A stretch of DNA of 64,000 nucleotides from Malacoraja senta (GCA_038087875.1 CM075990.1:11472001-11536000); one strand, 5' to 3'. Shown: positions 1,400 through 49,162, counted from the stretch's first letter. The notes: generated from the letters alone by a model not told the origin. Numbers and translations are program-made.

Positions 1400-1746
1400 G
1401 CCTGGATGTCCCATATGCCCCATAGATACATGATAAGGGAATAACATTTAGTGCAAGGTAAAGCCAGCAAAGGCAGTTCAAGGATTGTCCGAGGGTCACC
1501 AAAGAGTCCTGAACTACAATCGACCTCTTTGATGACCCTCGGATTATCTTTTGTCAGACTTTGCTGGCTTTACCTTGCACTAAACGTTATTCCCTTATCA
1601 TGTATCTATACTGTAAATGGATCGACGGTGATCATGCATTTCCTTTCTGCCGGCTGGTTAGCACGCAACAAAAGCTTTTCACTGTACCTCGGTGCATGTG
1701 ACAATAACCTAAACTGAACTGAACTAGACTGAACTGAACTAAACTG
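1400..1746. mobile_element. Rex1-type 3'-tail repeat, rearranged (minus piece then plus piece)
   Basis: Shares CAAAAGCTTTTCACTGTACCTCGG..GTGACAATAA plus a (CTGAA)n tail with copies at 4715-5120, 21975-22240 and 59795-60000. Confidence 0.65.
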
Positions 1747-1887
1747 ATATCTTCTCCCAGATGGTAGAAGAGTGAAAAGTGAATGGCCAGGGTGGCAGGC
1801 ATCTTTGACAATACCTGCAGCCTTCTTGATTCAATGCACCATGACGATGGACTGAATGGAAGGAAATGACAAGCCTGTGATAGATTA

Positions 1888-2440
1888 AACATAGACATAG
1901 AAACATAGAAAGTAGGTGCGAGAGTAGACCACCAGGTCCATCGAGCCCGCACCGCCATTCGCTCATGGCTGAACACCAAACAGACACCCCTACCCACAAA
2001 CAGTAGACACAAGACACAGAACACAAGACGCTACCCTCCCCTTTATACCGCTATCACCCCTCTCCACCCCAAGAACCGCGTGATCTCCTGGGGGAGGCAA
2101 AAAAACGGATAAAAACCCAGGTCCAATTCGGGAAAAAAATCCGGGAAATTCCTCTCCGACCCCAATCCAGGCGATCGACACTTGTCCAGGAGATCACTCA
2201 GGTCTTACTATACTAACCCTACCTAGGTCCATATCCCTGCCCTCTCCCCGTAGCCCCTTATCCCCTTGGCAGCTAAAAAACCATCTATTTTAGACTTAAA
2301 TATATTTAATGTTTCTGCTTCCACTGCTCCCTGGGGCAGTGAATTCCATAAATTAACCACCCTCTGGGTGAAGAAGTTCTTCCTCATCTCAGTTTTAAAA
2401 GAGCCCCCCCTTATTCTGCAACTATGTCCCCTAGTTCTAG
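1888..2440 (-). mobile_element. CR1 LINE 3' fragment of a second subfamily with a long 3' UTR
   Basis: ORF 2223-2474 contains RTRGHSCRIRGGSFKTEMRKNFFTQRVVNLWNSLP. About 330 bp of CpG-rich UTR follows, then a (TTTCTATG)n-type tail. Confidence 0.8.
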
Positions 2441-3653
2441 ATTGAGCTGTGTTCACTATTATCAGCAAGTTCAAGCGATTAAGAGCAGACGAGTTGTCAC
2501 ACCAGGCTGAAATGAGTCCCGTCAGAACACTTTCTATAGTAATGTGTAGGAAAGAACTGCAGAGCCTGGTTTAAACCGAAGATAGACACAAAATGCTGGA
2601 GTAACTCACCAGGACAGGCAGCATCTCTGGAGAGAAGGAATGGGTGAGGTTTCGGGTCGAGACTCTTCTTCAGATTTCAGATGTGGTGTTGAGTGCGCGT
2701 GTTGGTTGTGAATGATCTGTGAAGACCAGCATTGCTTTGGGAAAGTATTAGGATGTGTAGGGAAAAGAGGAAATGGTAACCTGTCAGGAATGGGCTGTTG
2801 ATCTTATGGAGAGTGGTCCTAAGTAGCAAATTGAGGACAAGCTGGAGATCAGGTAGTACTATGAGTAGGACTGATTCTGGACAGCACATGGGGATTTGAA
2901 TGGAAGAGATGTGTTGTACAATGATTTAATACGCAATGCCCTGCCTTGTTATAACTGTTCCAAGTAAGATTGCCGTGTTTCCAGTGCCGGATGTTTTTCT
3001 AGGTATATAAACCCTTGATTATAATGAAGAACAAATGCCAGGACTCTTTGGAGATTAAGCCATCTACTAAATCCAAACTACTGTAAATCCTTGTTTACGT
3101 TCAATGAAGCATAACGTCATAAATCAAAAAGAAAATGGGCAAAATTCATGACACGTTTGTATCTCAGGTCAGGGTATTCCAACGTGCAAAGGGTCGTGTG
3201 TGATTCATTATCATGAAAAACAGCTTTGCTAATTGACGAGTTAATGGTATTATAATGTAAATTCATAAATTGTTAATTGAGGCATTGCTGTTTTTCTCCA
3301 AATAAAATAATATGATTGTCTTTCTGATGGAAATCTGTTAGGATGGGGCCTCCATAGGAGTTCAAAGGTATTTAATTAGGAAAATTAGGAAAATCATCAG
3401 CACACTGAGTCAATACCGACCATCAACCATCCATTTGCACTGGTCCCATTTTTTAAAATGTTCCCCATATTCTTATCAATTCCTATTAGATTCTACCTCA
3501 CACCTACATGCTGGGGGTGATTTTCAATTAACCGACTACTTGCATGTCTTCACCTAGAGGAAGCCCATGTGAACACAAGAAGACCATGTAAGCATCACAT
3601 AGACAACACCAAAGGTCAGGATTGAACTTGGGTCACAGGCTCCATGAGGTTTA

Positions 3654-28956: not shown

Positions 28957-31900
28957 ATAATAATAACAATAATAATAATAATAATATATTTTATTGTCAT
29001 TGCACGTCAGTGCAACGAGATTTAGTATGCAGCTCCACCGATGTACAAGAAAAGTAAGATAAATAAATAAGCAAGCTGAGTGACGTGACCATCCGAGGGA
29101 GACTGTCCAGGGGGGGTGGGTGGGGGGGGGCACTCAGCAGGGCCGGTTCAGAGCCGCTATAGCTCTTGGAATAAAGCTGTTTCTGAGTCTGGAGGTTCGG
29201 GCGTAGAAGGCCTTGTAACATCTGCCGGAGGGAAGTAGTTCAAGCAGTCCGTTACAAGGGTGTGATGAGTCCTTATGGATGCTGACGGCCTTCCTGAGGC
29301 ACCGTGTGTGGTAGATGCCCTCCAAGGCTGGTAGCTGTGTCCCAATGATCCTCTGCGCTCTGTGGACGACGTGCTGAAGAGCTCTTCTCTCCGCCTCCGT
29401 GCAGCTGAGATACCACACAGAGATGCCATACGTTAATATGCTCTCTGTGGTGTAGCGGTAGAACGTTGTCAGCAGCTGTTGGGGCAGACCAGTCTTTTTT
29501 AATGTCCTCAGAGAGAACATTTGTTGCTGTGCCTTCTTGACCAGCGCAGCGGTGTTGGTGGACCATGTGAGGTCCTCTGAAATGTGAGTGCCCAGAAACT
29601 TAAAGCTGGACACTCTCTCCACACTTTCCCCGTAAATGGAGATTGGGGCGTATTCTCCATTATGGGACCTCCTGAAGTCAATACTCAGCTCCTTGGTCTT
29701 GGAGGTGTTTAGTGACAAGTTGTTATGAGCGCACCAGTCCGCCAGGTTCTGCACCTCCGCTCTGTATTTTGTTTCATCACCGTTGGTGATCAGCCCAATC
29801 ACTGTTGTGTCGTCTGCAAACTTCACGATGGTGTTGGTGTCGAATGCAGGGACACAGTCGTGAGTGAAGAGGGAGTAGAGCATGGGGCTTAGTACACAGC
29901 CCTGTGGTGTGCCGTGCTCAGGGTGATAGTGGAGGACAGGTGCGGGCCCAGTCTCACTGCCTGCGGTCGCTCCGTCAGAAAGTTCAGGATCCAATCACAT
30001 ATCGGCGAGCTGAGGCTTAGCTGGTGGAGTTTGGTGGTGAGCTTGGTGGGGATGACCGTATTGAATGCAGAGCTATAGTCAATGAAGAGCATCCTCACAT
30101 ACGTGCCCTGTCTGTCCAGGTGAGTCAGGACAGTGTGAAGAGCCAGAGAGATGGCATCCTCTGTTGATCTATTTGCCCTGTATGCAAATTGATGGGAGTC
30201 CAGTGAGGCAGGGATGCTGGATTTGATATGGGAGAGGACCAGCCTTTCGAAGCACTTCATTGGATTGGAGTTAGGGCAACCGGGCGGTAGTCGTTCAGGT
30301 TGGTGACTTTTTCGGCACCGGCACTATGGTGGCTGTTTTCAGGCACTTGGGGACCGTTGCCAGAGATAGAGACAGATTGAAGATTCTCGTGAATACTTCC
30401 GCCAGCTGTACAGCACAGTCCTTTAGTACCCTTCCCTGGACTCCATCCGGGCCTGCAGCCTTGCGTGGATTGATCCTACGCAGAGCGCACTGTACCTCCT
30501 GGGTGCTCAGTGTTAAGGCTGTCCCTCCGCCATGGCCGGGGTTATTCCACTCCTGGTGGGGTTGCCAGTTTCGAACCGGGCAAAGAAGGTGTTTAGTTCG
30601 TTGGCCAGTGTGATATCACCGTGGGGGCAGGCAGGGCTGCTCTTGTAGTCAGTGATGTCCCCGACACCCTGCCACATGCTTCTGGTGTCCGCGGTGTTGA
30701 AGTGGTCTTCTACCCGTTGCCTGTGGACGTCTTTGGCTTTTTTTATGCCTCTGTTCAGGTTCGACCTGGCCGCACTGTAAGCAGAAGTGTCACTGGATTT
30801 AAAGGCATTGTTGTGTGCCCTAAGCATATCCTGAACCTCCTTGTTCATCCAGGGTTTCCGGTTTGGGAACATCTTTATTTGCTTGTCCACTGTGACAGTC
30901 TCCACACAGCAGTTGATGTAGGAGAGCACAGTGGATGTGTACTCCTCCAAGTCTACCTCTGTACCACTGGTAGCCTGTTGTGCAAACAGGTCCCAGTCGG
31001 TGCGATCAAAGCAGTCCTGGAGTTGTAGGGTGGCGTCCTCGGTCCATATTTTGACCGTCCTTATTGCAGGTTTGGTCTTGCGGATGACGGGTTTGTATGC
31101 AGGCAGTATAAACAGTGAGAGGTGATCGGATTGTCCCAGGGATGGGCGGGGGAGAGCTCTGTATGGGTCCTTGATGTTGGTGTACACTTTATCCAACGTG
31201 TTTGAGCCCCTGGTAGGGCACTGCACATGCTGGTGGAATTTGCGGAGTGTGGCTCGTAGGTCGACCTGGTTAAAGTCCCCTGCAACAATGAAGGCACCGT
31301 CGGGGTGAGCATCCTGCTGCTGACTGATGGCCGAGTGCAGCTGTGCTAGAGCTAGGTTAGCATTAGCCTGTGGTGGGATGTATATGGCCATGATGATAAC
31401 CACCGTAAACTCCCGAGGCAGGTAAAACGGCCTACATTTAAGCAGTAGGTATTCCAGGTCTGGGGAACAGTAGCTCTCTACTGCAGTGTGGTTGGTGCAC
31501 CAGTCATTGTTGATGTAGATGCAGAGCCCGCCACCCTTGCTCTTACCGGAGTCCTTTGTTCTATCAGCACCATGCAGTGACCGGTTGGTCAGGTCCACAG
31601 CCCCATCGGGAACCAGCGCGCTGAGCCAGGTCTCTGTGAACATCAGCACACAGAGATCGCTGGGTGTTGGTCCAGAGCCTTACCTCATCCATCTTGTTGG
31701 TGAGTGACCGGACATTCGCGAGGAAGACGCTTGGTAGCGATGGTCTTTGTGGAGCCCTCCGTAGCCTGTCCTGCACCCCCGCTCGCTTTCCACGTTTCTG
31801 CTTTCGCTCCCGGCGCTTGCTCCATCTCCTACCCTCCGGAGTGGTGATCCAGGGGGGCTGTTCTGCCCAGCTCCCTCGGGATTGTGGTAAGGGTGCTGTA

Positions 31901-43251: not shown

Positions 43252-43381
43252 TGAGACCATAGAGTGATACAGTGTGGAAACAGGCCCTTCAGCTCAACTT
43301 GCCCACACCGGCCAACGTGTCCCAACTACACTAGTCCCACCTGCCTGCGTTTGGCCCATATCTTTCCAAAGCTGTCCTATC

Positions 43382-43587
43382 TGTAGATTGATGATGCATG
43401 TGAACCAATCACACTTAGCCAGCATCACTAACTCCACCCCATTATAACACTTATACTAACGCCCATTCCCAGCACCGTTAGTTGAAGCAGCTAGGATGAA
43501 ATGACAACCCCTTGTTTTGTAATGCTGCCAAGTTACTGTGCTGATTAAAGATGTGTGTAAATCTTATACAGTCTCAAGTGATTTACA
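43382..43587 (+). repeat. 5' LTR
   Basis: TGTAGAT...ATTTACA with internal ATTAAA; 5 mismatches to the 3' LTR by my count. Confidence 0.97.
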
Positions 43588-43605
43588 TGGTGTCAGAAGT
43601 GGGAT
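43588..43605 (+). promoter_or_regulatory. Primer-binding site, tRNA-Leu
   Basis: TGGTGTCAGAAGTGGGAT is the complement of a vertebrate tRNA-Leu 3' end (ATCCCACTTCTGACACCA) and lies directly after the LTR. Confidence 0.9.
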
Positions 43606-45128
43606 TAATGCACAGGCAGATTTCATCCTTTCCCTTCTTAACTGTGGCAATCATGGTTGAGACCCAGTCGGTGGGGTTGCTGACTGCTTCAATTACGCCT
43701 TTGGAGACCATGTCCTTCAGCATAGAGTGAACCCTGCCAGTTATGGCAAATGACAATCGGTGCGGGGGTCGGATTACGGGTGTCACATCGGGGTCAGTAA
43801 TAATCTTGTAGGACACAGGCAACTTGCCTAGGTTGTTGTCGAAGAGACCAGGGAATTCATTCAGTGGATCAAAAGAAACTTGCAGTTTGTGGACAGTTTT
43901 ATCAAAGGAAATCAGCCCCAGTTCCTGACGCACGATTGCCAAGCAGAGTAACTGAATTAAAGTTCAACACGTAGAAGGTCAATTCCCTCGTTGTTTTCTT
44001 CAGTACACATTTCAAGTTGGTTTTGCCCAGAGGAACCAGCACCTCCCCTCCAAAAGCATGTAAAGTGGACGCGTCCTTGACAAGTGGCTCGCTAGCTCTA
44101 ATCTTGTTAAAAAGGTTGATTGACATTGTGTTGACCTTCGCGCCCGTATCCAATTTTGCGCCAAAAACAACATTGTTTACAGGTATCGTCACTGTAGGAT
44201 CAGAATTCTTGGCAGCAGCATGCTGTAACGTGTAAACAGTTGGGTCATCTTGCGAGTTAATTGGAATGTATTCGGGGGCGGCTTCGAGCTGGAGATGGGG
44301 AGGCAGTATGTTGCTGTCTCATTGCAAAAAATTGAGATTAGACTTGGGACTGGGCGCATTCTTTCCTCGGGCCCTGATTGCAGCCCGACAGACTGAGGCA
44401 AAGTGATTTAGCTTTTGCAGTAATTACAAGCCTTCCCGAGGGTGGGGCAGGTGGATTGCCTGTTGTGTAGATAGCCACAGTTAGGACATTTCTGCGGAGG
44501 ACCGCTGAGAACTGCCTGGCTAGCTTGGGTCATAAATCGGCTGTGGGGCCCGTCAGATTGATGGTATTGCTTTCATGCGAATGTCTATGGGATCGACAAG
44601 TTTGGCTGTTCTACATGCATGCACCGCTTCCTCGAGCGATAACTCTGGCTGTCTCAGGAGCTCTGATCACTAAAATATCCCTCGTTAACTGATCAGTCAA
44701 CTGATGAACCAGCATTTCCTGGAATCGGCAACGTTGGGCTAAATACATTAAAGACAAAATAAATGAGTCAACTCGTTCCCCGGGAAGTTGACGACGAGAG
44801 GAAAACCTTGCCCTGTCCAAAATGTGATTTGAGGGCAGGTCACAGATCTGGCCTAGTTTTCGCAGCAAAACATTAGGGTCAGTAGGAGACTCCGCCGGTG
44901 TAATTACCTGGTCATCACGGATAGCCGGAGCATAATGGAATGTTCTGGATCGATGAAAGGGTACCTGGGCCCGCAAGGTTGAGCAGGAGAGAGGCCTTGA
45001 CAGCATCTGGTTCATTTCGGTGTACAATGTTCATGTAGTGCTGGGTAATCAATTTCAAACGTGGCCCAGCTTTCGCTGATATCCGCATCAAAGACAAGAG
45101 GCTTAGGCTTTCGACAAGAAGAAGCCAT
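43603..45128 (-). pseudogene. Mag-type gag-protease-RT N-terminus, frameshifted, inverted relative to the LTRs
   Basis: ATG at 45128 (MASSCRKPKPLVFDADISESWATF..ASLLLNLAGP); RRQLPGERVDSFI; tandem Zn knuckles (CPNCGYLH..C, CNYC..NHFASVC, ~44390-44492); protease LDTGA; RT start (GVIEAVSNPTDWVS...ICLCINP). Confidence 0.9.
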
Positions 45129-45193
45129 CGTAAAGTAAAGCAAAACTCACAAAAGATAAAATAAAAACCGTTATACAAGAGGAGTGGATAGGA

Positions 45194-45208
45194 CCACTTC
45201 TGACGCCA
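45194..45208 (-). promoter_or_regulatory. Second, inverted PBS
   Basis: Minus strand ACA-TGGCGTCAGAAGTGG, followed by the leader and gag ATG. Confidence 0.85.
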
Positions 45209-48200
45209 TGTTCTACTGGCCCGGAATGGCCATGTACATCCGGGACCGCGTAGCCTCCTGCCCCATTTGCAACAATCTTGTGCCTCATCAGCAGCGGCAA
45301 CCCCTTCTGCAACAACCTCCACCAGCACTGCCTTGGTCGTCGCTGGCTGCGGACATTTTCGAATGGTGCGGTAAGCACTACCTTGTTCTGGTCGACTCTT
45401 TTTCCAACTGGTTTGAACTTGACCAACTGACCTCCCTCACGTCTGAGATGGTCATCAAGAAGCTGAAAAGACCCTTCTCAGCCTATGGCGCTCCTGTCAT
45501 CCTGAGAACCGACAACGGTCGACAGTTCACCAGCCACTTGTTCAAGCTTTTCGCAGACCGATGGAACTTCCAGCACGTCACAAGCAGTCCCGAGTATCCA
45601 CAGAGTAATGGACTCGCTGAACGCGCTGTCAGAAGCGCCAAGCACTTGCTGGAGGGAGCGCGCATTTCAAAGTCAGACGTCTATCTCGATCTCCTGAATC
45701 TCAGAAACATCGCCAGAGACGGAACCTTGGGGTCACCAGCGCAGCGTCTGCTGTCGAGGGTGACGAGGTCTCCAGTCCCCATTGCACAACAGCAGCTGGT
45801 CCCTCGGGTGTTGAAGCCCGCCACTGTCCAGCAACGTCTCCAAGAGAAGCACGACATCCAGAAACGGTCATACGACAGTTCCAGCAGACCACTCCAGCCT
45901 CTACTGCCGGGCCAGGTCGTCCGTCTACGAACTTCAACTGGACATTCTCGTCTGGGCATTGTTTTTTTATTAGAAGTTAATACAATACAAAACAATACAA
46001 AGTCATAACGTAATGCATTCTATGTACAACCTCTAGTTTTATGTTTTTGAAAAGGAGGTAAAAAATAAAAAAAAAGAAAGAAAAAAATAGAGAAAAGAAA
46101 GAGGAAAAATAAATAGTAGAAAATAGAAAAACGTGAAGTGTGTATATAAGAAAAGAAAAAATAGAAAGTAGAAATAGTAGAAAAAGACCCTTAAAAAAGA
46201 AATTTTCAAATCTTTGTTTGGAGATGTAAATCTATCCACGACCTGACCTGAAATCAGTAATCTTTACGGTACTGCTGCATCACATGATTCCAAAAAGTCG
46301 ATGAAAGGTGACCAACTCCTTAAGAATTGGTCATATTTATCTATTAGGCGGTCTCATTTCTTCAAGGTGTGCTATGTCCGTCATATTCCTAATCCACATT
46401 TTAATAGTTGGTATAGCTGTATTTTTCCAAAATTTAAGTATCAATTTCTTTCCAATTATTAACCCATAATTAAAGAATACTTTTTGGTCTTTGTTTAAAT
46501 TGATATCTTCTAATATTATTCCAAATATAATCCATTCCATATTAGGTTCTATTCTTGACTTGAAGAGCTTTGTAAATATATCAAATATATCGCTCCAAAA
46601 TGTATTCAACTTTGTACATCCTACAAATGAATGTGTTATATTGGCATTTTGAAACAAACATTTATCGCATCTGGGAGAGACATTTGGGTAAAATTTATTC
46701 AACCTCGTTTTTGAATAATATAGTCTATGTAATAATTTAAATTGAATTAAATTATGTCTTGCATTAATGGAACAATTATGTGTATTCATCAGATACTTTT
46801 CCCATCTATCTTTCGGGATCTTTATCATTAGTTCATGTTCCCAATCTTCTCTTAGTGCCTCTGTTGAGGGTAATTCTCTATTTAATATACTATTATAAAA
46901 ATATGATATTAGTTTTTGTGAATCAGCCTTAATATTCATTGCTTCTTCTAAAGGGTCTAAAAATATAGTTTGAAATCTATGTATATATTTCTTCATAAAG
47001 TCACATATCTGTATATATTTAAAATATTGATTATCATTCAGTTTAAATTTTAATTTTAATTGTTGAAATGATAACAATTTGCCCAGTTCATACATATCTC
47101 CTACTTTCCTAATCCCCAATCTATCCCATTGTTAATATGTTTTATCGATAAGAGATGGTTTGAATGCAGGATTATTCAGAATTGGGGTTAATACTGATAG
47201 ATTATTTAATTTCAAGGATAATTTTATTTGTTTCCAAATTCTTATTGTATTGTGAATAATTGGGTTCTTCTTATATATTATACTATTCAATTTTATTGGT
47301 GAGAACAAGATCGTTCCTATATCGTACGGGAAACACTCCTCTTTTTCCATTCTTATCCACTCCGACTGGTGAGTTGAACTATCCAACCAGTACATTATGT
47401 TCTTAATATGCACTGCCCAGTAGTAATACGTAAAGTTAGGTGGTGATAAACCCCCAGCTTCTTTAGGTTTACACAAATGCTTTCGTTGAATTCTGTGTGC
47501 TCTATAATCCCATATAAAATTAGTGATATTAGAATCTAGTTTTTTGAAAAAATATTTCGGAATATATATTGGGATCGCTTGAAACAAATATATTAATTGT
47601 GGTAAGAAAGTCATTTTTATAGCGTTAATTCTACCTATCAATGAGAGTGGGAGCGTTTTCCAAAATTTAATCATAACATTCAATTTATTTAATAGTGGCA
47701 TAAAATTGGCGCTAAATAATGATTTGTGTCTTCTCGTAATTTGAATACCTAAATACTTGAATTTTTCTGTTGCAATTTTGAAAGGGAATTTTAATAAGTG
47801 TCTCGCATCCTGTGGTTTTGAAGACATGATTTCGCTTTTATTCCAATTTATTCTATATCCTGAAAAAGAACCAAATTCCTCAATTAGTGTTAATAAGGTG
47901 GGAATACTCGTTTGTGTATTAGTAATATATAAAAGAATATCATCAGCATATAATGAAATTTTATTCTTTGAGTCCTTGGTATTATATCCGTGAATATTCG
48001 GATGATTTCTAATCCTTTCAGCCAGCGGTTCTATCATAAGGGCAAATAGCAATGGTGACAAGGCACAACCCTGCCTATTACCCCTTGATAAATAACATTT
48101 TGAAGATAACATATTGTTAGTTAATATTCTTGCCGTAGGTTTATCATAAAGTAGTTTAACCCATCTAATAAAATTCTCTCCCGTATTAAATTTTTTGAGT

Positions 48201-48825
48201 ACCTTATATAAATACTGCCATTCTACCGGATCAAATGCCTTCTCTGCATCCAGCGTAACGACTGAAATATCTTCAATGTCCTCTTTGTGAGAGTACATTA
48301 TATTGAAAAGCCTTCTCAAGTTATTAAATGATTGTCTTTTGGGTATAAATCCCGTTTGATCCGGGTTTACCAATTTATTAATATAATTATTCAGTCTTCT
48401 TGCTAGAATCTTTGCTAAAATTTTCTGATCGCATTGTTGTACGCCCGACTGATGAGCCACGATCGTACCTTGTGGACTGTGAGGGAGCGGTATACCGGAG
48501 AAGTCGACAGCACCTGCTTGCTGTGAAGGAGCCCCGACCACCGCCTGCTGATCCCTATGCTCCGCCGCTCCAGTTCCAGCCACCTTTTGCAGTGTCTCCC
48601 GCCCGTCCCCGCATGCCTTGCTCCCCCTCACGTCCCTCGGTCTCCACTAACCACGGGGTTCCACCTACCGCATGTTTCCCCTCTCGTTCACCACAAGCCT
48701 CTCCCGTGCGATTTTCACCTTCAGCCTCTCCGCCTAATCCTTCAGTGGAGGGAGGGGATGGTTGGGTCCGCACGTGCTCGGGCCGTGTTAGTAGACCACC
48801 AGACAGGTATGGCGAGTATGTTTAA
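45205..48825 (+). pseudogene. Gypsy integrase, N-truncated, split by L1
   Basis: YWPGM..CPIC, ADIFE, LVLVDSFS, TDNGRQF, PQSNGLAER. After removing the L1 it continues GIVVRPTDEPRSYLV..RRSRQHL..RTCSGRVSRPPDRY. Confidence 0.92.
45962..48430 (-). mobile_element. L1-clade LINE, 5'-truncated (ORF2 RT plus C-terminal Cys domain, 3' UTR, poly-A)
   Basis: DQTGFIP, LDAEKAFD, RQGCALSPLLF, YADD, KYLGI and CDKC..HSFVGC; one in-frame stop at 47132-47134; TSD GCATTG(TT) at 45956 and 48431. Confidence 0.95.
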
Positions 48826-48852
48826 TACACTTCCTTTCCACATTTAATCTTT

Positions 48853-48863
48853 AGGGGGAAGGA
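48853..48863 (+). promoter_or_regulatory. Polypurine tract
   Basis: AGGGGGAAGGA immediately before the 3' LTR. Confidence 0.9.
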
Positions 48864-49069
48864 TGTAGATTGATAATGCATGTGAACCAATCACACTTAG
48901 CCAGCATCACTAACTCCACCCCATTATAACATTTATACTAATGCCCATTCCCAGCACCGTTAGTTGAAGCAGCTAGGATGAACTGACAACACCTTGTTTT
49001 GTAATGCTGCCAAGTTACTGTGCTGATTAAAGATGTGTGTAAATCTTATACAGTCTCAAGTGATTTACA
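48864..49069 (+). repeat. 3' LTR
   Basis: Direct repeat of 43382-43587. Confidence 0.97.
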
Positions 49070-49162
49070 TATCCATGTACCTGTCTAACTGTTTCTTAAA
49101 TGTTGTGATAGTTCCCGCCTCAACTACCTCCTCTGGCAGTTTGTTCCACACACCCACCATAC

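Follow-up and report, generated by a model that had tools for sequence, protein, structure and literature searches.

Fixed-site inversions in a Ty3/gypsy-type family of Malacoraja senta suggest mis-priming by plus-strand strong-stop DNA, a probable counterpart of twin priming

How can a retrotransposon carry its front part backwards and still be inserted like a normal element? The question is raised by a long terminal repeat (LTR) element at positions 43382-49069 of a 64,000-nucleotide stretch of Malacoraja senta DNA (GCA_038087875.1, CM075990.1:11472001-11536000; this whole stretch is called the window). The element is of Ty3/gypsy type, with direct TG...CA LTRs of 206 nt (97.6% identical), the target site duplication (TSD) TATC on both sides, a tRNA primer-binding site (PBS) after the 5' LTR and a polypurine tract (PPT) before the 3' LTR. 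Between the LTRs it consists of an 18-nt copy of tRNA-Leu, an antisense block of about 1.6 kb that runs from the N-terminal part of reverse transcriptase (RT) through protease, gag and leader to the PBS edge, a sense integrase and the PPT. The last parts of the block are a 15-nt PBS in reverse and three bases of the LTR, after which integrase follows in sense orientation; about 1.42 kb (1648-3071 on the ruler of the colinear copy L105) is absent. The first-pass annotation had placed LTRs, PPT and integrase on the plus strand and leader, gag, protease and N-terminal RT on the minus strand, and this is borne out, for protease (weak match, E 0.004) and integrase (E 4e-11) by Pfam and for N-terminal RT and gag by colinearity. 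Searches of Pfam and PDB gave no match for the RT and gag pieces of the window, which are putatively identified by their colinearity with the uninverted natural copy L147, whose domain order is protease-RT-RNaseH-integrase.

The arrangement is very likely the product of recurrent mis-priming by plus-strand strong-stop DNA on the element's own RNA, an LTR analogue of twin priming. Plus-strand strong-stop DNA copies 18 nt of the primer tRNA. Here it would end in the tRNA-templated ...GTGGGAT, which would be unable to pair with the final three native PBS bases (TCC, TCT or TCA); its 3' end would instead anneal to an AUCCCA motif of the sense RNA that the growing minus strand has yet to reach. RT would then extend the antisense strand towards the 5' end of the RNA, and no further than the PBS edge; R-U5 there would have been removed by RNase H. 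The two cDNA 3' ends, that of the antisense extension and that of the unfinished minus strand, would join through 0-5 nt of microhomology or short filler, with deletion of the intervening part, and the product would integrate because both LTR ends stay correct. What is directly observed is that first junctions are fixed at primer-matching hexamers, that second junctions are unique, that many independent lineages are involved and that integration is normal. The first-pass annotation had proposed such a course for the window element (mis-priming inside RT, copying back to the PBS/U5 edge, joining to integrase and integration), and the proposal passed every test that could be run.

In the window, the tRNA copy and the antisense of the RT codons for I-N-P share the hexamer TGGGAT, and the left junction maps to these residues through L147. 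The outer PBS at 43588, for which a tRNA-Leu match of 18-19 nt overlapping RT codons had been claimed, matches the copy of a genomic tRNA-Leu(CAG) gene (L167) for 19 nt. In uninverted copies, TC(C/T/A)TA(T/C)CC comes after a PBS of 15 nt, and the match to TGGGAT lies exactly at the junction, as anticipated. In three colinear copies from the window's side of the family (L105, L147 and L093) there are only three 6-nt matches to the 3' end of the primer copy, all antisense: X1 (position 1643 of L105), X2 (1682) and the gag site X3 (630). Rarer first junctions use matches of 4-7 nt, and at least seven different first junctions occur; in L106 a variant primer end, GGAAT, is joined at a 7-nt GTGGAAT site. 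A sub-lineage of 25 copies, starred on the tree, provides a built-in control, as its X1 hexamer is changed in 18/18 readable copies; it holds no X1 and 13 X2 copies against 14 X1 and 8 X2 copies outside it (Fisher p 0.0002, only a guide, the counts being taken by eye from the tree and kin sharing labels).

The two PBSs of an inverted copy differ in type. Outer PBSs are tRNA-type at positions 4 and 12 in 32/32 similarity-selected copies, whereas the inner ones end in TC (9/9) and mostly carry C at position 4 (8/9), a base that, counted by eye, roughly two in three of 100 listed native PBSs also carry. The native PBS ends in TC(C/T/A), not GAT. Therefore the outer PBS was copied from the tRNA, and the template PBS was unable to pair with the last three bases of that copy. 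The right (inner) PBS of the window element is real and precedes the leader as had been described, although only 14 of its claimed 15 nt match, and it continues with TCC where the tRNA copy has GAT. The two 18-mers of the earlier description form an inverted pair with one base different at 43585-43602 and 45194-45211. Genome-type position 4 combined with GAT is found at nine sites, and the four that were inspected all belong to a sister family. Three different registers join an 18-nt PBS of tRNA type to the leader in five colinear copies (L096, L117, L131, L143 and L156), which are probably slipped yet successful transfers.

In that sister family, with about 78% identity, the native PBS does end in GAT. 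Among its 19 sites (one a flank duplicate), 17 run into the leader, one is an X2-type inversion and one a deletion, so that 1/19 is inverted against 10/18 in the window's sub-lineage (p 0.001).

How common such copies are was assessed in a 1.94-Gb animal genome. Exact patterns, whose counts include segmental duplicates, give 57 sites for X1, 66 for X2, which lies 39 nt downstream of X1, and at most 104 for the native PBS-leader, the latter including reversed inner PBSs such as the window's own. With a 619-nt query of LTR plus junction, 40/40 scored matches span the junction, most of them near full length. The search for further copies with the same junction, which the first-pass annotation had suggested, has thus revealed a family-wide structure that recurs in more than 120 copies at fixed sites. 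Exact TSDs are present in 36/48 X1 and X2 copies with both ends found (X1 15/24, X2 21/24), and the median LTR identity of these copies, 98.1-98.5%, is like that of colinear copies. Repeat annotation would label such copies nested or mis-assembled.

Three samples give differing values for the share of aberrant copies. For the PBS-pattern sample, 99 sites were taken from the first 100 among 262, and 12 rows (flank duplicates, inner reversed sites, one tandem repeat and two without a full LTR) were dropped to leave 87: 51 inverted copies, 13 read-through copies, 4 sense jumps, 17 colinear and 2 unclear copies. It is biased in that its pattern misses a frequent form of the native PBS, in which position 12 is A. 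The integrase-selected sample of 33, biased to copies that keep integrase and classified by hand, contains 11 colinear copies and 5 in which the inversion follows the PBS, besides 3 with read-through, 1 sense jump, 5 that are cut ahead of the PBS and 8 unclear ones. A PBS-blind census of the window's LTR variant found 22 sites, 18 of them distinct, with 10 inverted, 4 read-through and 4 native. About half is a fair figure for the aberrant share. A value of about 80%, from the 17 colinear of 87, was dropped because of the ascertainment bias caused by the missed position-12 variant.

Second junctions behave differently from the first. Among 74 inverted copies, 63 have a scorable simple joint and all 63 second junctions differ; 61 of them resume at or downstream of X-6, X being the first junction, and the two exceptions are three-piece copies. 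Of the joints, 34 are clean, and 22 of these have an overlap of at least 2 nt (null 16%). The window's right junction had been thought to overlap integrase through CCATGT. Only the 3 nt TGT are common to integrase, and other copies read GGGATC-TGTTCTAC there; so, of the two microhomologies claimed, the left one (TGGGAT) stands and the right one shrinks from 6 to 3 nt.

Several points weigh against mis-priming on RNA, or against its apparent extent. The integrase-selected sample, with 11/33 colinear and 5 inverted copies, implies that 51/87 overstates the inverted share. At the second junction, 29/63 joints were classed as filler, in several cases owing to neighbouring indels, and the null for the overlaps in the clean joins ignores the choice of the best among several references. 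The rule that second junctions resume downstream could equally reflect the loss of palindromic products. Six of 66 antisense blocks, that of the window included, stop within 3 nt of the PBS start (p 4e-7), a pile-up that comes mostly from similarity selection (five of the six have this origin or are the window itself); in the PBS-pattern sample it is 1/43 (p 0.16). The lower inverted share of the sister family is a contrast within a single pair of families, and the one X2 inversion arose there despite a matching PBS. Finally, L158 and L197, which lie at different loci, have in common a rare first junction, made at a 4-nt match, and an antisense end that agrees to within 1 nt; they probably descend from one inverted copy, in which case at least one inverted copy re-transposed, and some second-generation movement is likely.

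Could the whole set then descend from one or two master copies that were inverted once and amplified non-autonomously, each descendant later deleting its own second junction? L030, a complete reciprocal inversion, is a possible master, deletions are frequent in colinear copies too, L158 and L197 resemble descendants of one inverted copy, and L012, L014 and the window element, which are closely related, each reach to the PBS edge. Yet on both trees, one of the 3' end (76 rows) and one of the segment beside the junction (55 rows; rows without the region were excluded), X1 and X2 copies are intermingled with read-through and colinear ones, and approximately unbiased (AU) tests reject one clade for X1 (p-AU 6e-5) and X2 (1e-56) on the 3' tree and again on the junction-side segment (3e-48 and 7e-5). 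None of the 63 second junctions is shared, first junctions are of at least seven kinds, and where a sub-lineage has lost the X1 hexamer, X1 events disappear. A single master as the main source is ruled out by the AU tests together with the unshared second junctions; we consider this origin improbable, and it explains a minority of copies only. Mis-priming on plus-strand DNA, from a second co-packaged genome or a fold-back, instead of RNA is a further possibility. It would account for L030, L128, L123 and L112, which run through U5 or the whole LTR to head-to-head LTRs that an RNA starting at R cannot template by itself. A switch made later, at the PBS copy, can however produce such run-on; several of the blocks end no more than 3 nt from the PBS edge; and the downstream position of 61/63 second junctions is expected for two RTs on one RNA. 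A DNA template seems distinctly unlikely.

Inversion after insertion, by DNA repair or by recombination between short inverted words, could in principle have used TGG as microhomology, with the RT antisense as the only source of the GAT behind the 15-nt PBS. Position 4 is C in some two thirds of the native PBSs listed, but 32/32 outer PBSs have T; there are many TGG sites, but the junctions sit on TGGGAT; and the inversions are not reciprocal. A reverse PBS in the integrase of intact copies, named beforehand as a sign of simple inversion, was looked for in colinear copies and none was found. The two PBS types and this absence rule the explanation out, and we regard it as very improbable. An assembly artefact would fit the fact that three sequencing runs gave no read or contig across the window's junctions, the contigs being short in this repeat, and an integrated autointegration circle would also contain inverted sequence. 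The same base-exact first junction is, though, repeated on dozens of contigs with differing flanks and TSDs, and 18 nt separate it from the CA terminus of the LTR; both origins are extremely improbable. Mis-priming of strong-stop DNA on the element's RNA thus remains the preferred explanation.

Some copies show further rearrangements of the LTRs. Head-to-head LTR copies, with a U3 end at both sides, are L092, L099, L112, L123 and L129, and also L024, L115 and L238; the first five have exact 5-bp TSDs, and therefore integrase accepted them. L129 is a whole element of 308 nt, folded back at a 6-nt match within the LTR. L178 and L205 have a 5' LTR that breaks off after about 23 nt, each joined to an internal site of its own; this may be a hot spot at which plus-strand transfer happens prematurely.

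The mispriming process would be a variant of aberrant plus-strand transfer that works like twin priming but is not target-primed reverse transcription, as the inverted part begins after the LTR and the tRNA copy, within the element. Pulsinelli and Temin in 1991 and Olsen et al. in 1990 reportedly described strand-transfer errors in retroviral vectors and in unintegrated avian retroviral DNA, in the laboratory and at low frequency. In HIV-1 (human immunodeficiency virus type 1) proviruses, tRNA read-through and premature second-strand transfer are described as deletions (PMC12657518). These errors resemble ours in that read-through is followed by a downstream jump or the junction lies upstream of the PBS, and both classes occur here; that paper speaks of deletions and does not contain the word 'inversion', whereas here the dominant product, in roughly half of the copies, is a germline inversion at fixed hexamers. 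Inversions form 1-3% of proviruses in another HIV study, whose passages covered here give no such mechanism (PMC9278108). In L1 twin priming, an inversion with a deletion arises through a second primer (PMC2837659). The likeness extends to a second primer inside the RNA before the first strand is done, an inverted 5' part, an internal deletion, TSDs and microhomology at the inner joint; the second primer of L1 is a host DNA nick, whereas here it would be the element's own plus-strand strong-stop DNA, before integration, and first junctions are fixed because this primer has one fixed 3' sequence. Autointegration inversion circles also show inverted internal segments in LTR-element cDNA, but they are non-integrating and their breaks spread through the element, whereas the copies here have fixed first junctions, direct LTRs and TSDs (PMC7197481). 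A literature search found no LTR family with hot-spot inversions of such structure; the classic retroviral papers lay outside its coverage, and a closer precedent is possible.

What does a mismatched PBS offer to the element, and what does it cost? In mouse endogenous retroviruses and Ty elements, common PBSs mismatch their tRNA, with escape from tRNA-fragment silencing as the proposed benefit, and what passes to new copies of Ty1/Ty3 is the genomic PBS, not the one copied from tRNA (PMC7472051), as in most colinear copies here; no inversion cost of the mismatch appears in the passages covered. The present family offers a testable cost side for this proposed trade-off of priming against silencing. 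A rare laboratory RT error becomes a countable natural experiment of more than 100 germline insertions, which record the end of strong-stop DNA, the pairing needed (6 nt) and the cost of a PBS mismatch, with two built-in controls: the sub-lineage without one site, and the sister family, whose PBS matches. The experiment suggests that non-LTR elements are not the only ones to undergo twin priming, and indicates a possible route for an LTR family to seed antisense copies of itself. The first-pass annotation had already proposed that the 5' LTR would drive antisense gag RNA as a possible silencing source. Much more tentatively, the mismatch may be kept at the price of twin-primed products in about half of the insertions, each with RT-protease-gag antisense behind an intact LTR promoter; the family would thereby build up a dispersed source of antisense silencing and limit itself, and its failed copies would record the m1A58 (1-methyladenosine 58) mark of the primer tRNA. 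We find this extension doubtful, and the silencing, which would resemble a piRNA cluster or Mu-killer in yielding antisense transcripts and small RNAs that lower the family's expression, is a prediction from the structure of the copies.

The tRNA-derived sequence sometimes extends further. Fifteen of the 99 sampled sites continue beyond position 58 into the tRNA, six of them with a non-T base opposite this position; in the read-through copies L100, L107, L110, L121 and L155, A or C replaces T there, the pattern expected at m1A. This fits m1A58 as the usual stop, a role given to it in PMC8599865. The lengths and sequences of the read-throughs point to more than one tRNA-Leu isoacceptor. The window element has no tRNA read-through followed by downstream sense sequence, as in HIV-1-type transfer. 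A check with ARAGORN found no tRNA gene at 9/9 loci of one set and none at 6/8 of another. The 3' 31 nt of tRNA-Leu occur at 199 genome sites, 191 of which continue with C as in CCA; the six inspected (L159-L164) all sit behind LTR-like ends of other families, and therefore several Leu-primed families here commonly show read-through at plus-strand transfer. The two ends of L160 carry opposed read-through PBSs.

The features of the window element are collected in Table 1.

Table 1. Features of the inverted element and its surroundings (window positions; ruler as in L105)
Feature	Position	Strand	Remark
Left part of host SINE-like (short interspersed element-like) repeat, insertion target	43258..43381	+	resumes 49070-49159
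Left TSD TATC, 4 bp	43378..43381	+	usual in family: 5 bp
5' LTR, TG...CA	43382..43587	+	97.6% identity to 3' LTR
tRNA-Leu 3'-end copy, 18 nt (outer, tRNA-type PBS)	43588..43605	+	19th base matches too
First junction X1, hexamer TGGGAT	43600..43605	+	common to tRNA copy and antisense of RT codons I-N-P
Inverted block: leader, gag region, protease, N-terminal RT	43600..45211	-	ruler 1648 back to -2
Aspartyl protease domain	43935..44189	-	Pfam PF13975, E 0.004, under curated cut-off
Putative gag region, stops and frameshifts	44341..45128	-	by position alone; no Pfam match
Inner genome-type 15-nt PBS	45194..45208	-	C at position 4; then TCC and leader
Second junction, 3-nt microhomology TGT	45209..45211	.	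reversed LTR end versus integrase
Integrase, zinc-finger tail and core	45209..45963	+	sense strand; ruler 3071 onward
LINE (long interspersed element) insertion (RVT_1, zf-RVT), 5'-truncated	45964..48430	-	8-bp TSD 45956-45963 / 48431-48438
Integrase tail and 3' untranslated part	48431..48852	+	
PPT	48853..48863	+	
3' LTR	48864..49069	+	
Right TSD TATC	49070..49073	+	

The intact TATC duplication of the first-pass annotation is present on both sides, its 4 bp being an exception to the family norm of 5 bp. Integrase is indeed in sense orientation, but the annotation had missed the LINE of 2.47 kb, with an 8-bp TSD, that interrupts it; this AT-rich insertion is missing in the other aligned copies and is younger than the surrounding LTR element. 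In L147, the one copy scanned for an envelope gene, the single open reading frame after integrase gave no Pfam match, and the gap between integrase and PPT is about 0.4 kb. Elsewhere in the window, at 29134-31679, there is a minus-strand LINE remnant with endonuclease and RT matches. As to insertion sites, the same 5-bp target occurs in independent insertions (GTTTG in L079, L102 and L120; GAAAT in L128 and L133), and several copies are inserted in the same SINE-like repeat as the window element, hinting at a target preference.

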